Sequence record: MW929183.1
Length of the DNA stretch: 18,619 nt
Source of the DNA: Escherichia phage FS2B
Strand: one strand, 5' to 3'
Positions 1 to 18,619 of the stretch are shown one piece after another; the first letter of the stretch is position 1, and the number at the start of each line of letters is the position of its first letter. Position numbers and translations under genes: made by a program. A model generated the notes under the pieces. The model did not search any database. It saw nothing but the letters and a program-made list of their open reading frames with translations, and was not told where the DNA came from.

Positions 1-610
1 AGATTAGAACGAGCACTAGCAGCATTTTTAGCTCCAGTGCCTCCTCTTTCAACACCTAGAGCCAAATCGCCAACTCTTCCAGGCGAGGTACTGTAACATC
101 CCCACCCATTATTATCCACAAAGAGGTAGGTTTCTTTGTTAGGAGATAGTAATCTACTCTCCCCAGAGGCTTGATCAACTCTATCTATAGATAAATTGGA
201 ACGAGCAGCATCAACAGTAGTTGCCCCTGTACCACCATTAGCTATAGGAATTGTGTTGAGTGTAGCTATGGAGCTTAGACCTAGATTAGAACGAGCACTA
301 GCAGCATTTTTAGCTCCAGTGCCTCCTCTTTCAACACCTAGAGCCAAATCGCCAACTCTTCCAGGCGAGGTACTGTAACATCCCCACCCATTATTATCCA
401 CAAAGAGGTAGGTTTCTTTGTTAGGAGATAGTAATCTACTCTCCCCAGAGGCTTGATCAACTCTATCTATAGATAAATTGGAACGAGCAGCATCAACAGT
501 AGTTGCCCCTGTACCACCATTAGCTATAGGAATTGTGTTGAGTGTAGCTATGGAGCTTAGACCTAGATTAGAACGAGCACTAGCAGCGTCTTTAGCTCCA
601 GTGCCTCCTT
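1..610. repeat. 282-bp tandem direct repeat inside the tail-fibre gene: copies 1-282 and 283-564 identical, third copy from 565 diverges after ~45 bp
   Basis: Direct comparison of 1-282 with 283-564 shows identity over the full unit. 282 = 94 codons, so the repeat is in frame and encodes a duplicated 94-aa module. Copy number to the left of the window is unknown. Confidence 0.9.
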
Positions 611-2081
611 GTGTGACAGACAGTGCTGTAGTGAGTCCCGTGAGGGATGTTATATCAGAGTTTGTACCAGAAGCGGCAGCACCTAAAATTGATCTGGAGA
701 TGTTCACATTACCAGTAATCTCATCAGGAGCTTGGTTATTTACAGTAACAACATAAGGTTTCTGAGCCTGTACAGACCCATTGTACTGAGAGTCTTTATC
801 AGAATCTGGTGCTCTTATTGCCTCCCCTCCAGTCCAATCAGGAAGTCGAATGTTGATAAAATTAGTAGAATCTGCATCGGTAATACCATCTGCCAATTTA
901 CCCCAAGAGAAGTATTGTTTAGCCCCTGCTTGCCATTCAGTTTCAGAAACAACAGGAAGTTGTCCACTGACAAGGGATGGGCCTAAATCTGAAGCAGACT
1001 CTTTAGACACTAGACGACCATCGGCTGGAAGAACGCCCGGATAGGAGATATTCTTCGTTGGGTCATAAGGGAACATTACCATCTCACCAAGATATAGAGA
1101 AGGGTTTCCTGTTGGAATGGTAATGTCAATATTACCACTGGAGTCTGGAGAACGGGAATTAACAGTAAGAATTCTACCTTCAGTTTTAACAGGAGTTAAT
1201 GTTTTGTTAGCAGCAACAGTATAAAATTCATACTTAGTAGCTTCCCAAACTAAGACCTTCTCACCAACTTGGCGATATTGAGCGTCAGCATCAGCTTCTG
1301 CTTTAGATTGATATGTCTTGGTGGTTTTATCAAACTTGTCATTAATCTCTTGACGACTGTACTGAGCAACGTTCAGAACATTCCCTAAACCTACCGTCTC
1401 TTTGTTAAGTGTTAGAGCAACCTCTCCATCAAGAGCTGGACCGCCGTTAATAGAGACAGAACGAACAGATGGGATTAAATTAGCAATGTTATCTAGAGTA
1501 GTTTTGTGGACGGTATTGTCATCTTTGTCAACATAGAAACCTAAATCACCTAGCTCTGGAACACCTGTAGGTGCTGTATCCAAATCCTTAACAGAACCAT
1601 CTTTTCCGGGATCACCTTCTGGAATACCTAAAGAGATTACACCAGTGTTAGGATTAAAAGAGCCAGTAGCCGGAGTTCCCGGAGGGAGAGTTGTTACATC
1701 AACAGACATTCCTAACAGAACATCAAGCTGATTCTGGACTTCAATAAGTTTTTGGTTAATGAGAGCAACGGCATTATTAGCATCCGATACTGCTGCGTTG
1801 GTTTGGGCAATCAGAGTCATCAAACGAGCATCTTGATCCTTAAAATCCTGCTTAAGATCTTCAATATCCTGCTTCATCAGAACACCCTGTTGATATAGAC
1901 GTTCTACTTCAGCGATTAAATCATCAATTGTACCAAACTTAGATTCTGCTAGCAGTGCCCAATATTTGGAGTCAGCTGCATATTCTGCTGCTTGCTTGTA
2001 AGCTCCGATAGAGCCTTCAGTAGCACCAAACTGCCCAACGTTATTCACTGCATCAGGTGCTTGGTTATTATAAACGATCAT
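1..2081 (-). CDS. Tail fibre-like protein, partial (C-terminus lies beyond window start)
   Basis: Minus-strand ORF open from ATG at 2081 to position 1 (>=693 codons), missing from the ORF track only because it has no stop in the window. SD AAGGAGA 4-5 nt upstream. Translation contains repeated IANGGTGATT...ARSNLGL motifs typical of phage tail-fibre repeats, and a short G-X-Y stretch (GDPGKDG). Sits at the distal end of the structural block. Confidence 0.8.
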   Translation of the reverse strand, partial: MIVYNNQAPDAVNNVGQFGATEGSIGAYKQAAEYAADSKYWALLAESKFGTIDDLIAEVERLYQQGVLMKQDIEDLKQDFKDQDARLMTLIAQTNAAVSDANNAVALINQKLIEVQNQLDVLLGMSVDVTTLPPGTPATGSFNPNTGVISLGIPEGDPGKDGSVKDLDTAPTGVPELGDLGFYVDKDDNTVHKTTLDNIANLIPSVRSVSINGGPALDGEVALTLNKETVGLGNVLNVAQYSRQEINDKFDKTTKTYQSKAEADADAQYRQVGEKVLVWEATKYEFYTVAANKTLTPVKTEGRILTVNSRSPDSSGNIDITIPTGNPSLYLGEMVMFPYDPTKNISYPGVLPADGRLVSKESASDLGPSLVSGQLPVVSETEWQAGAKQYFSWGKLADGITDADSTNFINIRLPDWTGGEAIRAPDSDKDSQYNGSVQAQKPYVVTVNNQAPDEITGNVNISRSILGAAASGTNSDITSLTGLTTALSVTQGGTGAKDAASARSNLGLSSIATLNTIPIANGGTGATTVDAARSNLSIDRVDQASGESRLLSPNKETYLFVDNNGWGCYSTSPGRVGDLALGVERGGTGAKNAASARSNLGLSSIATLNTIPIANGGTGATTVDAARSNLSIDRVDQASGESRLLSPNKETYLFVDNNGWGCYSTSPGRVGDLALGVERGGTGAKNAASARSN

Positions 2082-2090
2082 ATTATCTCC

Positions 2091-2843
2091 TTATACACGA
2101 GAAGTACGAATACCATAAATATCAGGCAAGCTGCTCTGAAGCCGAGTCATGTTATTCGGAATTGCGATAGGTGAACCTGAGTACTCTTGTTTCTTATTCT
2201 GCTCTACCATTTCATCAAGGATAGCTTTTCCTAATGCTGACCATTTCTGAACACCGTTATCATCTTGAACAAAGAGACAAGCATGACGTAGGGTGAAGTA
2301 CAGAAGAAGTTCTGGTGCGATAGTAAGAATAGCACTGGTATCTGTATCTTCGTGGAATTCCGGTGGGTCTGCATAATAGCTAAGAATCACTGAGTTTTCT
2401 GCTGGAATTAAAGGGCTTCCATCATCAGGATAAACAGGAGTATCTGCTTCAATACTAGGGTAGAAAATGAAACGACTCCCGAAACGAGCAAAGTTAACAG
2501 GTTGGTTATTCCAGTGAGATGGGTTAATTGTTCCATGCTGTCTACGATAGCTAATCTCCTCAGGAGAGGTTACTTGGAAGATTGTACCATCTTTGGCTCT
2601 CATCATCCATTGAGCTTCTAAGTAATCAGGAGGAATATAAGCTACTCCATCTTTGATATCTAAATACACTTCTTTTTCCAGAGGAGGAATACGTAAGTTA
2701 CGATAAATCTCTTTCTCTGCAAAGTTAATAAAGTTTGGAATTTGATTAACAAATTCATCGTCGTCCCTATCTGCCCAGAGGGCCACGGCCTTCTTTAGCC
2801 ACCCATAGGTATTGATGGGGTATTGAACATCTGGCATTGCCAT
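2091..2843 (-). CDS. Virion structural protein, 250 aa (possible head-tail adaptor or tail protein; function not established)
   Basis: ORF with ATG at 2843 preceded by SD AAGGAGG at 7 nt spacing. Stop is 10 nt before the tail-fibre start. Located between the head genes and the fibre gene. Confidence 0.7.
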   Translation of the reverse strand: MAMPDVQYPINTYGWLKKAVALWADRDDDEFVNQIPNFINFAEKEIYRNLRIPPLEKEVYLDIKDGVAYIPPDYLEAQWMMRAKDGTIFQVTSPEEISYRRQHGTINPSHWNNQPVNFARFGSRFIFYPSIEADTPVYPDDGSPLIPAENSVILSYYADPPEFHEDTDTSAILTIAPELLLYFTLRHACLFVQDDNGVQKWSALGKAILDEMVEQNKKQEYSGSPIAIPNNMTRLQSSLPDIYGIRTSRV

Positions 2844-2906
2844 AGGTTGTCCTCCTTGTTGTATGTAGACAAAGAATATACATTACACACTAGCTTGTAT
2901 AGGTCT

Positions 2907-2938
2907 TAAAACGAAAAAACCCCGCCCGAAGGCAGGGT
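2907..2938 (-). terminator. Rho-independent terminator downstream of the capsid/Ig-like ORFs
   Basis: Minus-strand RNA reads CCCUGCC-UUCG-GGCGGGG followed by UUUUUUCGUUUU: 7-bp GC-rich stem with one G-U pair, UUCG tetraloop, U tract. Confidence 0.6.
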
Positions 2939-2944
2939 CTGATT

Positions 2945-3457
2945 TTAAGCAGGTGTTACACCAGTAAAAGTGCATGTTGCATTGATGGACGGGTCAGCTG
3001 TCAAACTTGCTTGAACAGTAACTTCGCCACTTGCAGCAGCATCTAATTTTAACGAATTATTAGCGCTTATTGTACCAGCTTCTACGGGAGTTACAACAAG
3101 TGTGTAATCATCAGCAACAGAATTGGTTACAGTAAACATGGTGTTGAAGTTAGTGGTAGTACCACCTACTTTACCTGTAATTGGCCCACGACTCACAATA
3201 GTAGGAGCAGGAGCAACAATTTCAGAAATGGTTGCTGTACCAGAAACACCTTCTAAAGTTGCAGTAATGGATACATCAGTGGATTGAGACGCACTCGGAG
3301 CAGTATACAAACCCGACTGAGTGATAGAACCACCTCCTGTCACTGACCAAGTAAAGCCAGTTGTTTCGGTAGAACCATCACTTTTCTCCGCGCTTGCAGT
3401 GAACTGCCGAGTAGCCCCTGTCTCTAGACTTGCTAAAGACGCAGGGCTAACAGTCAC
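2945..3457 (-). CDS. Ig-like domain ORF (T/S/G/A/V-rich, beta-rich), probably expressed as a C-terminal extension of the major capsid protein by -1 frameshifting rather than independently
   Basis: Track ORF begins at GTG 3457 with no SD and no ATG. Its reading frame stays open upstream to 3548, overlapping the last ~26 capsid codons in the -1 frame. Composition resembles bacterial Ig-like decoration domains. Confidence 0.6.
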   Translation of the reverse strand: MTVSPASLASLETGATRQFTASAEKSDGSTETTGFTWSVTGGGSITQSGLYTAPSASQSTDVSITATLEGVSGTATISEIVAPAPTIVSRGPITGKVGGTTTNFNTMFTVTNSVADDYTLVVTPVEAGTISANNSLKLDAAASGEVTVQASLTADPSINATCTFTGVTPA

Positions 3458-4568: not shown

Positions 4569-5645
4569 TTAATCTACGAGGAATTTGAATGCGTCTTCGT
4601 GACTAACGCGACCCTCTGCGAATGCCTTGGCAACCTTAGCGTTGTCGGGCTTATTGGAAGTGCGAGACTTTGCAGCATCAGACTTCACAACCTTGCGTGG
4701 AGCACCGGGACGTTTAATCTTAGCCATCACCTGTTGCTTACCTTTATCAAATTGGTATGCTTTATGGAGAGCTAGGAAAATAGACGGACGGTTTTCCTTC
4801 AATACTTCTTCTTCAGTAGCACCTAAGTCAATTGCGTATTGCATTAAGTTTTGATATAAGTTTTCATCCCAATTTGGAATCTCACGTTTCAGAATATTAA
4901 CACATTCAATACTCTTGGCTTGGAAAGCTTCCTGCTCTTTAGCTGCTGCTTCCTGCTTAATACGGACCTGAGCCTGTTCAAGCTGTTGACGGCGAGCTGT
5001 GTACTTCTCTAGGAAACGTTTGTTTTCAACATATGCTTGAGGATCTTCTACTGCAAGCTTGTCCCAATCAAAACCGTTATAATCTTCAATTACTCGGTCT
5101 GCTTCTAAAGACGCTAGTTCTAATACATCCTTCAAACCTACTACACGTTCCTCGAATGCTTCCATATGACGCTGAAGAGTTGATTCTCGTTCTGTCATAT
5201 CAGCACCAGTAAGATAGCCATTAGAAAGTTCTTCAATAGTCATCTCACGTCCATCAGGAAGGGTGATAACGGTTTCGTAGTCTACATCAAAGACTTCACC
5301 TTCACCGTCAGCAGAATCATCTTCATACTCTGCATCGCTTGAATCTTCTTCCTCTTGTTCTTCTGCTTCAGAGGATTCGTCTTCATCTTCTTCGACTTCG
5401 CCTTCCTCTTCACGATCTTCCCAACCATCTTCATCTTCGAACTTAAGCTCATCGCTTTCACCGAGAAGGTCGGTATCAAAGTCGAAATCGTCACCGTCTT
5501 TTTCCGGGAACTCATCGTCAATGTCCACTTCTGGTTCTTGTTCAGATTCTAATCGACCGAGTTCTTCTTTGAAAGAACCTTTCAGGTCATCCAGTTGGAG
5601 GAAAGATTTAAAATCGTTCGGGTCAATATAATTATCTTGTGGCAT
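4569..5645 (-). CDS. Scaffolding protein, 358 aa
   Basis: Very acidic low-complexity N-terminal half (runs of E/D) and helical, coiled-coil-like C-terminal half, positioned between portal and capsid genes. ATG 5645 overlaps the upstream stop by 1 nt (TAATG). Confidence 0.65.
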   Translation of the reverse strand: MPQDNYIDPNDFKSFLQLDDLKGSFKEELGRLESEQEPEVDIDDEFPEKDGDDFDFDTDLLGESDELKFEDEDGWEDREEEGEVEEDEDESSEAEEQEEEDSSDAEYEDDSADGEGEVFDVDYETVITLPDGREMTIEELSNGYLTGADMTERESTLQRHMEAFEERVVGLKDVLELASLEADRVIEDYNGFDWDKLAVEDPQAYVENKRFLEKYTARRQQLEQAQVRIKQEAAAKEQEAFQAKSIECVNILKREIPNWDENLYQNLMQYAIDLGATEEEVLKENRPSIFLALHKAYQFDKGKQQVMAKIKRPGAPRKVVKSDAAKSRTSNKPDNAKVAKAFAEGRVSHEDAFKFLVD

Positions 5646-5881
5646 TATGAAACATCTCCTGCACTATTGATAGCAGCTTTTATGACCTCTTTTAAGCTAC
5701 CAACCATTTTATACTTTTGATAACAATCTTCGCGTTTCTTATTCTCATGAGGTTCTGTTTGAACTATCTCTGTCATGAGTCTTTCTTTCAATGCCTCTAA
5801 TGCTGCGTCAAGACTGCCGTTAAGGTTGAGAGCCGCCAAAGCGGCGGCGTGCTCTTTATTAAATTGATGTCTAATGTTCAT
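5645..5881 (-). CDS. Small hypothetical protein, 78 aa
   Basis: ATG 5881 with SD AAGGA at 6 nt spacing. Stop overlaps the scaffold start codon, suggesting translational coupling. Confidence 0.55.
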   Translation of the reverse strand: MNIRHQFNKEHAAALAALNLNGSLDAALEALKERLMTEIVQTEPHENKKREDCYQKYKMVGSLKEVIKAAINSAGDVS

Positions 5882-13977: not shown

Positions 13978-14052
13978 GCTTAATCTTTCTCCTGTATTGT
14001 GCCGTAGTCATGCCTATGGTCATAATTTATCTGATTCTCTAATCCTTCCTGT

Positions 14053-14080
14053 AAGCCTCCTAGTGAGGCTTTTCTCTTTT
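14053..14080 (+). terminator. Rho-independent terminator ending the 12482-13977 operon
   Basis: Perfect 7-bp stem AAGCCUC / GAGGCUU with loop CUAGU, followed by UUCUCUUUU. Confidence 0.7.
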
Positions 14081-14361
14081 ATGAGGTGATTGTATGCCTT
14101 ACTCCCTTTTAGCTCGTTGTGATGCGTTTTAGGCCGCTAAATATCGCTTTACAAGCCATTTTCTATGATGTATCGCGTGCGCCTGCTCTTTTACCTTCCT
14201 ATAGTGAAAAAGTTTAAAATAATTTGCTTTACCCTATTGCAACCTCATCTGATTAGCGTATACTTCATTTCATCGGGTACGATGTAAAACATACAAGGCA
14301 AGAAATTGCCCCGCTCTTTAAAAATCAGGCTAGAAAGTGAAAATATTCTCAAAAAAGAGTA

Positions 14362-14390
14362 TTGACACCGGAAAAAGCCTGATATATAGT
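14362..14390 (+). promoter_or_regulatory. Strong sigma70-type promoter P1: TTGACA, 17 bp spacer, TATAGT, with A-rich upstream element
   Basis: TTGACA at 14362-14367, TATAGT at 14385-14390, spacer exactly 17 bp. A-tract (aaaaaagag) immediately upstream, UP-element-like. Confidence 0.65.
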
Positions 14391-14994
14391 GAGCATAGTC
14401 AGCGATGACTTAAAAAATCCCGCTCTTTAAAAATATGATTTGTCTTACGGGTGGCGGCGACGTCATTACTATAAGGCGCTCAGTTAATCGGTAGAATTGA
14501 TTCCTGATTCATACGTGACGCAGGCGGACAATAAGCAATATCAATAAGCCTTATTTGTTCGATACTTTCAAAAGATTAATGCTTGAAAGCGCACTAGATT
14601 CCCTGAAAGACAAATCAGACTTATCATCTTGCCCTTTCGCATAGATTCACGCGAGATAAGGGAAAGGAATTAAAAGAAGATGATAAAAAGAGTTGCAAAC
14701 GTGGTTAAAGTAGTCCATACTAACCACAAGTTAGCAAAACATCGCTAACTAGTTCCCAAATCAACGTATCGCGGGAAAGGTGGCACATAGTGCAGCGATT
14801 AGTTCAGGTGTAGGCGGCCTGTTAATGAATCAGTAAGCCTTCAATGTGACAGTGATTAGCAGACACTTTAAAAGGCTAAACGCTCTTTAACAATATGAGT
14901 CATAAGTTAAGCCTCACCGCTTAATCTTCAATCAAATAAAGCTGATTGATATATCCTCCCAATAGCGGGAACGACGAAAAAGATTAAAAAGCGG

Positions 14995-15023
14995 TTGACA
15001 GCGAAAACAACATGATTCATAAT
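14995..15023 (+). promoter_or_regulatory. Strong sigma70-type promoter P2: TTGACA, 17 bp spacer, CATAAT; paralogous to P1
   Basis: TTGACA at 14995-15000, CATAAT at 15018-15023. A-rich upstream (aaaaagattaaaaag). Both P1 and P2 are followed by GAGCA just after the -10. Confidence 0.65.
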
Positions 15024-15946
15024 GAGCACTCACTAAGCAAATCATCGCTTCAGTGAAAAGCGTAACAACGGCTAACAGTTGCATAGTGTGAGAAAGCACA
15101 CTGATAGATTTACCGCTCTTTAATAATTTAAACATTCTCCTATATCGGTTGAATATGCTTGATGATAATAACCATCGGAAAGCATACCAGATAAAACGGC
15201 GTAAAACTCCCTAAATTATCAGGGTAAACAGTTTTACATTCCCTTACTGGAAACGTCACCATTGATAAACGGATTCATTGAGTACACGCAAAGACTTGAG
15301 CTAATCGCCCACGGTTAAGGGTAGCGGCGGTCATTGCTAACACGGTGCTACAGTGAAAGAAGTTAATCAGGGTAGGCAAGTCCGACGAATTAACGCTCAA
15401 TTGAGAGCGGCGGGGAGTGGTTAAAAAGTGGCAAATTGCTATTTAACAATAAGGTTTAATGCGAACGTTTACGATGTGAACGGCTTGAGATTCATCATAG
15501 GATGAAAGTACATAGCCGGGTTATGTAGTAAACCTGCTGAAAGATATAAAACGCCGGAATATTAGGCGGTTAGTGACTCTTTCGCAATAGTATCCCGTAG
15601 TGGGCGATGACTAGCGATAGAGAGCTGATACAAAAGGATAAGCGGGAGCGAAAACAAAGTAGACGATATTGCCGACGGTTACAATAACGTAACTAATTAG
15701 AGTCGGACGCACTGCCTTATTGTGATGATTGATCATCGCTATCAGGTCGGCTTCGTTTATAGCGACTAATTAAAGATACCAGATGAAACATCACGGATAA
15801 GGGGGCGGCAAGGTTAACTCCTGATAAGACCGCCCCGCTTACCTATAACTACTTAACAACGAGTGGTTATAGTTAAGTTAATAGTGACTTAAACAAGCTC
15901 ATAGAGAGCGGGGCAATAGCGCCCTTACAATTGAAAGGTGAATATT

Positions 15947-18334: not shown

Positions 18335-18619
18335 ATGAAAGCAATTGTATTATCCTCAATCCTAGCTCTGTCCGTAATGGCATCGCCTGTTATTGCTAAA
18401 AGTGGAAACAATGGCAATGGCAATGGAGGTTGTGGTGTAGGTCAATCTACCAATGGTTGCGGTATCGGAGATTGGTTTAAAGGTGAAAAAGGTGATCAGG
18501 GAGAGAAAGGCGACACTGGCGCTAATGGCATTGATGGTAAAGATGGCATTGATGGTAAAGATGGCATTGATGGTAAAGATGGCATTGATGGTAAAGATGG
18601 CATTGATGGTAAAGATGGC
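18335..18619 (+). CDS. Secreted collagen-like protein, partial (runs off window end)
   Basis: ATG 18335, not in the ORF track because no stop falls in the window. N-terminal signal-peptide-like MKAIVLSSILALSVMASPVIA, a Gly/Asn/Cys-rich linker, then uninterrupted Gly-X-Y triplets (GEKGDQGEKGDTGANGIDGKDGIDGKDG...). Confidence 0.65.
   Translation, partial: MKAIVLSSILALSVMASPVIAKSGNNGNGNGGCGVGQSTNGCGIGDWFKGEKGDQGEKGDTGANGIDGKDGIDGKDGIDGKDGIDGKDGIDGKDG
18527..18619 (+). repeat. Perfect 18-bp tandem repeat (ggcattgatggtaaagat), at least 5 copies, encoding (GIDGKD)n
   Basis: Read directly from the sequence; the array continues to the window edge. Confidence 0.9.

Follow-up and report, generated by a model that had tools for sequence, protein, structure and literature searches.

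In the deposited sequence of Escherichia phage FS2B, the gene of the proximal long tail fibre contains two 282-nt copies of one module in tandem, and we give an even chance to the reading that they come from a very recent in-frame duplication of a single 94-aa shaft module, which would make FS2B a two-unit allele. Comparison with related genomes marks the locus as a genuine hotspot, where modules are gained and lost by recombination between copies of a 45-nt direct repeat. The main alternative is an assembly that went twice through a single unit.

The fibre gene and its repeat array

The window analysed here is the entire 18,619-nt GenBank contig of the FS2B draft (MW929183.1; proteins UAG58496 to UAG58509). 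It is phage DNA of the genus Kuravirus, in the phiEco32/SU10 group, and the best match over the whole window is phiEc_1 (97.7%). FS2B was isolated from sewage in India and grows on uropathogenic E. coli, according to a reference given in PMC11997193. The other record of FS2B, MW929182.1, is labelled “partial genome” and has 58,790 nt; both records together amount to 77.4 kb, the genome size of Kuravirus. The fibre gene is split over the two records: its ORF exits the window at base 1 and the remainder is found in MW929182.1 from nt 28, where the 3' part is annotated from an internal Met only (341-895, “putative tail fiber”). The features of the window on which the argument depends are the following.

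1..2081, minus strand: proximal long-tail-fibre gene, 5' part, 693 codons, homologue of SU10 gp12; ATG at 2081, with AAGGAG upstream
2091..2843, minus strand: adaptor gene (PF24175, SU10_adaptor), directly upstream of the fibre gene
565..609, minus strand: R1', upstream flanking direct repeat GGTGAKDAASARSNL, D-type; 96% identical to the other R copies, with differences at 588 and 590
565..587, minus strand: exact 23 nt of R1' that match the other R copies (sequence comparison)
328..564, minus strand: U copy 1, 237 nt, containing a 30-aa fibre repeat and most of a 64-aa beta module
283..327, minus strand: central R GGTGAKNAASARSNL, N-type; the junction that a duplication would create
46..282, minus strand: U copy 2, same sequence as copy 1 (base comparison)
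1..45, minus strand: terminal R, N-type; the contig stops on its last base, and U and Y part 3 nt further on
18525..18619, plus strand: 95 nt of a perfect 18-nt array at the other end of the window, within a collagen-like gene (18335-18619)

Direct comparison bears out the earlier claim of identical 282-bp copies: positions 1-282 equal positions 283-564 at every base, and the repeat search agrees. TRF finds one array in the window, at 1-609, with a period of 282, 2.2 copies and a score of 1204; since the array is truncated by the end of the sequence, “2.2 copies” merely describes what the contig contains. The strictly periodic stretch is 1-587, and an exact repeat of 282 nt goes far beyond what chance could produce. 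The partial copy at 565-609 departs from the beginning of the unit (45 nt) at 588 and 590 alone, and the sequence diverges from 610. The original prediction took this segment for the beginning of a third copy, which has to be corrected: because the fibre gene is on the minus strand, the segment is the upstream flank of the array in gene orientation. Read in that orientation, the layout is X-R1'-U-R-U-R and then the contig end, in which R is a 45-nt motif encoding GGTGAK(D/N)AASARSNL and U has 237 nt. The duplication was also said to be in frame and of module size, and this holds, with 282 nt making 94 codons in an open frame; likewise each unit has two of the GGTGA...AR.NL motifs that had been noticed (protein positions 522/586 and 616/680). 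A unit of U and R encodes first the 30-aa fibre repeat LGLSSIATLNTIPIANGGTGATTVDAARSN and then a module of 64 aa.

Two short words in the array are used below. The 26-nt segment S (GCTGCTAGTGCTCGTTCTAATCTAGG) consists of the exact 23 nt of R1' and the next 3 nt, AGG, which are shared with the downstream sequence Y, and it is a 26-nt match between the window and the companion contig. The 28-mer TGCTGCTAGTGCTCGTTCTAATCTAGGT at 279-306 is the smallest word that is diagnostic of the duplication junction. Besides, an imperfect palindrome of 25 nt (GCTTGATCAACTCTATCTATAGATA..., with 80% complementarity; 169-206 and 451-488) lies in each copy of U and is probably incidental.

The assignment to a tail fibre, also made earlier, agrees with the match to the SU10 tail fibre (PDB 7z47_D, E=0) and with the annotation of the GenBank relatives as tail fibre. 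For the search of the PDB with phmmer, the query was the 852-aa orthologue from Bas90, whose gene has 99.5% DNA identity to the window gene; 7z47_D (786 aa) is nearly identical to it over residues 1-507. The C-terminus of the Bas90 orthologue carries PF25670 (Phage_tail_C_2, E=3e-60), and as an FS2B protein joined with one unit differs from the Bas90 protein by only 2 residues, its C-terminal domain is essentially the same. The position of the adaptor gene at 2091..2843 fixes the identity of the locus. In MW929182.1 the fibre gene ends at nt 895 and a “tail fiber” gene comes next (936-3128), and in relatives a distal fibre gene with PF13884 comes after the proximal one. By homology and gene order, the product is the SU10 gp12 homologue, that is, the proximal long-tail-fibre protein of Kuravirus.

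With hmmscan against Pfam (E up to 1, 693-aa product), no phage fibre repeat family, such as Phage_fiber_2 (PF03406), was found over the repeat. Among fibres in the PDB there are only weak, motif-level matches, to 9zd7 gp92 (E=0.03) and 6cl5 (E=0.86). An AlphaFold2 monomer model built on a 41-sequence alignment predicts one separate, small five-strand beta module per unit (pLDDT about 80-85), with the AR.NL motifs as short helices. A Foldseek search of the PDB with this model gave nothing significant (best E=0.036, TM 0.15 or lower). As a monomer model of a trimeric fibre, it may be taken as weak evidence.

Several other observations concern the rest of the window. Between the capsid and adaptor genes, an ORF for a 170-aa protein with an Ig-like domain lies at 2945-3457 on the minus strand; the FS2B record annotates only 64 aa of it (UAG58496.1), and relatives give the full 170 aa. 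The region 14000-15900 spans about 1.9 kb with ORFs of at most 67 aa, and includes two sigma-70-like promoters (11/12) on the plus strand, at 14362-14390 and 14995-15023, with several terminator-like hairpins nearby. Searches of the window for tRNA genes and Rfam families gave zero matches.

Unit number in related phages and a possible origin of the array

Ongoing unequal recombination had been proposed as the source of the copies, together with a comparison of copy number in related phages. The comparison was made, and as a mechanism the proposal is sound: 45-nt direct repeats flank the unit, and near-identical phages have either one unit (852 aa) or none (758 aa), a reciprocal deletion junction included. 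Exactly one unit is found in about twenty GenBank phages and several metagenomic contigs. For example, Bas90 has a unit with 100% identity to that of the window, between two exact copies of a 45-nt repeat (5492-5536 and 5774-5818 of the compared Bas90 sequence). Over gene nt 1027-1799, every base of EC.W14-3 agrees with a version of the window that has one unit, the D-type R1' and the N-type R2 included.

Zero units, with a protein of 758 aa (852 - 94) and flanks at least 98% identical, are found in Ec3-ASingh, EcM-vB1, EcK-vB, KM01, EcP-vB and YW01. In the first three of these, a D-type R is fused to Y with 100% identity at the junction, and this fusion is the deletion product predicted as the reciprocal of an unequal exchange between R1' and R2. 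For the zero-unit phages, BLAST identity (99.3-99.7%) ends at the end of R1, and R is a mosaic boundary. Other members of the family have differing module sets, with 0 to 6 GGTG motifs among the best 120 of 225 homologues, and adjacent 30-aa modules of P0046 agree at 29 of 30 residues. The closest relative over the whole window, phiEc_1, contains the next 30-aa module twice in tandem, a perfect 90-nt duplication that we regard as real because its junction is novel sequence. The phiEc_1 “complete genome” (LC768462.1) opens within the fibre gene and has a terminal redundancy of 175 nt that contains the 90-nt duplication; depending on how the ends are joined, its fibre has 882 or 912 aa.

From the 0/1-unit polymorphism together with the reciprocal deletion junctions, it follows that unequal recombination from R to R operates at this locus. 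Four points of the comparison speak for a real duplication in FS2B: the closest fibre alleles have exactly one R-flanked unit, which would be the ancestral state; the number of units varies in nature; R is a mosaic boundary; and fresh module duplications occur in the fibre gene, as in phiEc_1. The intact ORF of a two-unit join, the modelling of each unit as a separate module and the precedents in other phages speak for it as well. On the other side, no 946-aa (two-unit) protein was present among the best 120 of 225 homologues from 5.8 billion proteins, an absence that is relevant since such a protein would be expected among the top matches. The U-end/R/U-start junction was not found in IMG/VR, JGI metagenomes, GTDB genomes or other GenBank phages.

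If the duplication is real, it would have arisen by unequal homologous recombination or replication slippage between two 45-nt R motifs, 282 nt apart. Two sites distinguish R1' from R2, and the central R has the N-type letters at both, so the exchange would lie 3' of the D/N sites, within the 26-nt S; this is the sole place where a crossover, or equally a merge in a small-k graph, leaves an N-type central R. The reciprocal products would be a two-unit gene (as in FS2B, 946 aa when joined to the companion) and a zero-unit gene (758 aa). Each chain of the proximal half-fibre, which is a trimer, would gain one extra “bead”, made of the 30-aa repeat and the 64-aa beta module. The half-fibre would become longer by a few nanometres, a figure that is a rough scaling from SU10 (786 residues per 300-400-angstrom segment), and the distal receptor-binding protein would stay untouched.

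Contig ends and the alternatives

The companion contig MW929182.1 starts with 27 error-laden nt, followed by 108 nt equal to the last 108 nt of the window in gene orientation and then by R running into Y; judging by this error-filled start, the FS2B assembly is rough. Since the 108-nt overlap is wholly within the unit, the records can be joined as one unit or as two, and both joins are viable. The one-unit join gives an intact 852-aa ORF, a single residue off EC.W14-3, and the two-unit join gives an intact 946-aa ORF with a normal PF25670 C-terminal domain. At the other contig junction, the array of the collagen-like gene measures 95 nt in the window and 113 nt in the companion, so the contig is bounded by repeats on both sides. 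When both strands of the 77-kb FS2B genome were searched, exact repeats of at least 20 nt occurred only at the fibre and collagen-like loci, and the contigs break at both.

The collagen-like gene at 18335-18619 (plus strand) runs on into the 3' end of MW929182.1; it is cut inside the perfect 18-nt (GIDGKD) array and annotated piecemeal, as an “agglutinating adhesin” and a hypothetical protein. The homologue in Ec3-ASingh, a protein of 250 aa, carries both PF01391 (Collagen) and PF03895 (YadA_anchor, E=6e-19), and from these domains the FS2B protein is predicted to be of a secreted type with a YadA-type membrane anchor. Such a trimeric-autotransporter-like protein is unusual for a lytic podovirus.

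The earlier reading had itself cautioned that the array could be an artefact of assembly, by collapse or by expansion. Collapse acts in the wrong direction. Expansion keeps its weight, as the draft contig ends inside the array, overlaps its companion only in the repeat and has ends whose geometry fits k=23. We lean slightly against it while considering it quite possible that FS2B has only one unit and that a cycle of 282 nt in a small-k graph (k about 23) was walked twice. The 26-nt S common to R1' and R2 would close this cycle, and the contig builder would have halted at the merge vertex. The array indeed lies at the very end of a complete contig in a two-contig draft whose companion overlaps it inside the unit only, and both contigs end in the only exact repeats of the genome at or above 20 nt. 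Three repeat-bearing contig ends fit k=23, a value inferred from their lengths: 587 = 23 + 2 x 282 (564), 95 = 23 + 4 x 18 and 113 = 23 + 5 x 18. With the left end given, each of the two array lengths had a 1-in-18 chance of agreement. Moreover, the window halts on the last base of the first 23-mer common to R1' and R, 3 nt before the split of U and Y. For k up to 27, the two-unit sequence adds no k-mer to those of a one-unit genome, and junction-specific words are needed from k = 28 upwards; if k was 23, one- and two-unit genomes yield an identical graph, so the contig alone proves nothing.

A k=77 signature (SPAdes), read from the 95-nt array, was dropped, for it does not account for the 3 nt that separate the left end from the divergence of U and Y; had it held, the junction would be supported by reads. 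The value of 23 was preferred because it fits the left end and both ends of the collagen array.

Other records point in the same direction as a double pass through one unit. ShigP1 (PQ818763.1), labelled a complete genome, shows 100 Ns where U would stand between R1' and R2; its fibre gene is consequently annotated as fragments. The records of phiEc_1 and ev_rybdy3 open at these fibre motifs, and that of ev_rybdy3 (PQ819470.1) both starts and finishes at R. Two Logan contigs of related phages assembled at k=31 (SRR31952291_269 and SRR33223178_134) stop inside R1. The lack of a second two-unit allele in the collections searched, including the best 120 of 225 homologues, also agrees with it.

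However, de Bruijn assemblers usually collapse or break repeats and do not expand them. A plain unitig would stop on first reaching the merge vertex, whereas a read-threading assembler would pass the 26-nt repeat of a one-unit genome unbroken. Followed backwards, the companion contig crosses the shared segment and takes the correct branch, an indication that reads were used. Both the assembler and its k are themselves deduced, and the number of units is truly polymorphic at this locus. If the duplication is real, the break and the second pass are the expected effect of conflicting U-end/R/U-start reads, again for software that we infer.

A heterogeneous stock, in which frequent recombination at R keeps one-unit and two-unit (or larger) genomes mixed in the FS2B lysate, is a special case of the real duplication, and we hold it to be highly improbable. 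It would explain why the assembly breaks exactly at the array even though the shared segment is only 26 nt, it fits the N-gap at the position of U in the independent assembly of ShigP1, and there is a parallel in stocks of EfV12-phi1, which held 0 to 4 extra copies together (PMC6365445). Nevertheless, an assembler with a small k accounts for the break without any heterogeneity. Horizontal exchange, by which a two-unit cassette would have been acquired from another phage, has a next to negligible chance. In its favour, this family has mosaic fibre genes with recombination at R. Against it, the two copies match each other, and the single unit found in the closest relatives, without a difference, and no two-unit donor was found in the collections searched (best 120 of 225 homologues; IMG/VR, JGI, GTDB and GenBank phages). 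The same mutual identity and the identity to the single unit of relatives led us to reject a programmed diversity mechanism. A mixture of two strains as the source of the N-type R before U is unlikely too, since FS2B is a cultured isolate and the mixture needs a k of 49 or less.

Consequences and known systems

The original prediction went on to a possible change of host range, and this link is weak, since the protein forms the proximal half-fibre and the receptor-binding domains are on the next gene product. In SU10, whose long fibre measures about 700 angstroms, gp12 trimers make up the proximal half (PMC9509320), and for this phage group the receptor-binding domains have been assigned to the T-shaped protein at the distal end (PMC11990801). 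Receptor specificity is not expected to change directly; any effect would be modest and indirect and concern the length of the proximal fibre. In T4, mutations of proximal fibre subunits alter niche breadth (PMC7002106).

If the duplication is real, FS2B would be the first two-unit allele and would complete a natural series of 0, 1 and 2 copies in nearly isogenic coliphages (the fibres of KM01, Bas90 and FS2B show few other differences), a clean system for relating proximal fibre length to adsorption through O-antigen; FS2B has been considered for therapy of uropathogenic E. coli. A bolder version, which we think unlikely, is that the R motifs serve as recombination joints and the proximal fibre as a length “accordion”, with fibres of 0, 1, 2 and more units continually made and the thickness of O-antigen or capsule selecting among the lengths. 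This would account for the failure of independent assemblies at the fibre locus, and copy number would then change quickly and reversibly as an adaptation, one that genomes from short reads miss systematically. If the array is an artefact instead, it is a warning that the copy number of fibre modules in Kuravirus is unreliable in short-read assemblies. Several deposited “complete” genomes open, break or have N-gaps at the same fibre motif.

Four known systems can be compared with the array. SU10 gp12 (PDB 7z47; Siborova et al. 2022, PMC9509320) is alike as an orthologue, in residues 1-507, in its position after the adaptor gene and in its C-terminal domain. Unlike FS2B, it has no U unit, and its R leads straight into the next 30-aa module; as only the first 90 residues are resolved, the repeat region is without an experimental structure. 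The cycles formed at contig ends by de Bruijn assemblers are alike in the terminal repeat, in a length of k plus whole periods, in the overlap inside the repeat and in breaks only at repeats, and unlike in that their usual result is a collapse or a break and not an extra full copy.

A duplication at this place would be an already known kind of event and involve no new mechanism. In the Enterococcus phage EfV12-phi1 (Wandro et al. 2019, PMC6365445), in-frame tandem duplications in a fibre gene arose under selection and were proven by coverage, PCR and MinION sequencing. The likeness lies in the perfect in-frame repetition of a segment within the fibre that precedes the binding domain, in a variable copy number, and in an event first noticed as an anomaly of assembly or coverage. 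The differences are that the EfV12-phi1 unit has 1.8 kb and arose repeatedly in experimental co-evolution, whereas the FS2B unit has 282 nt, belongs to the proximal half-fibre of a podovirus and is known here from deposited contigs alone. Small in-frame duplications of a fibre domain have also been described for T4 gene 37 (Tetart et al. 1996, J Mol Biol 258:726, as cited in PMC7002106 and PMC6365445). According to these citing papers, they resemble the FS2B array in being small and in frame within a fibre domain, but they affect the distal adhesin and were selected for extended host range, while the FS2B unit is in the proximal fibre protein.
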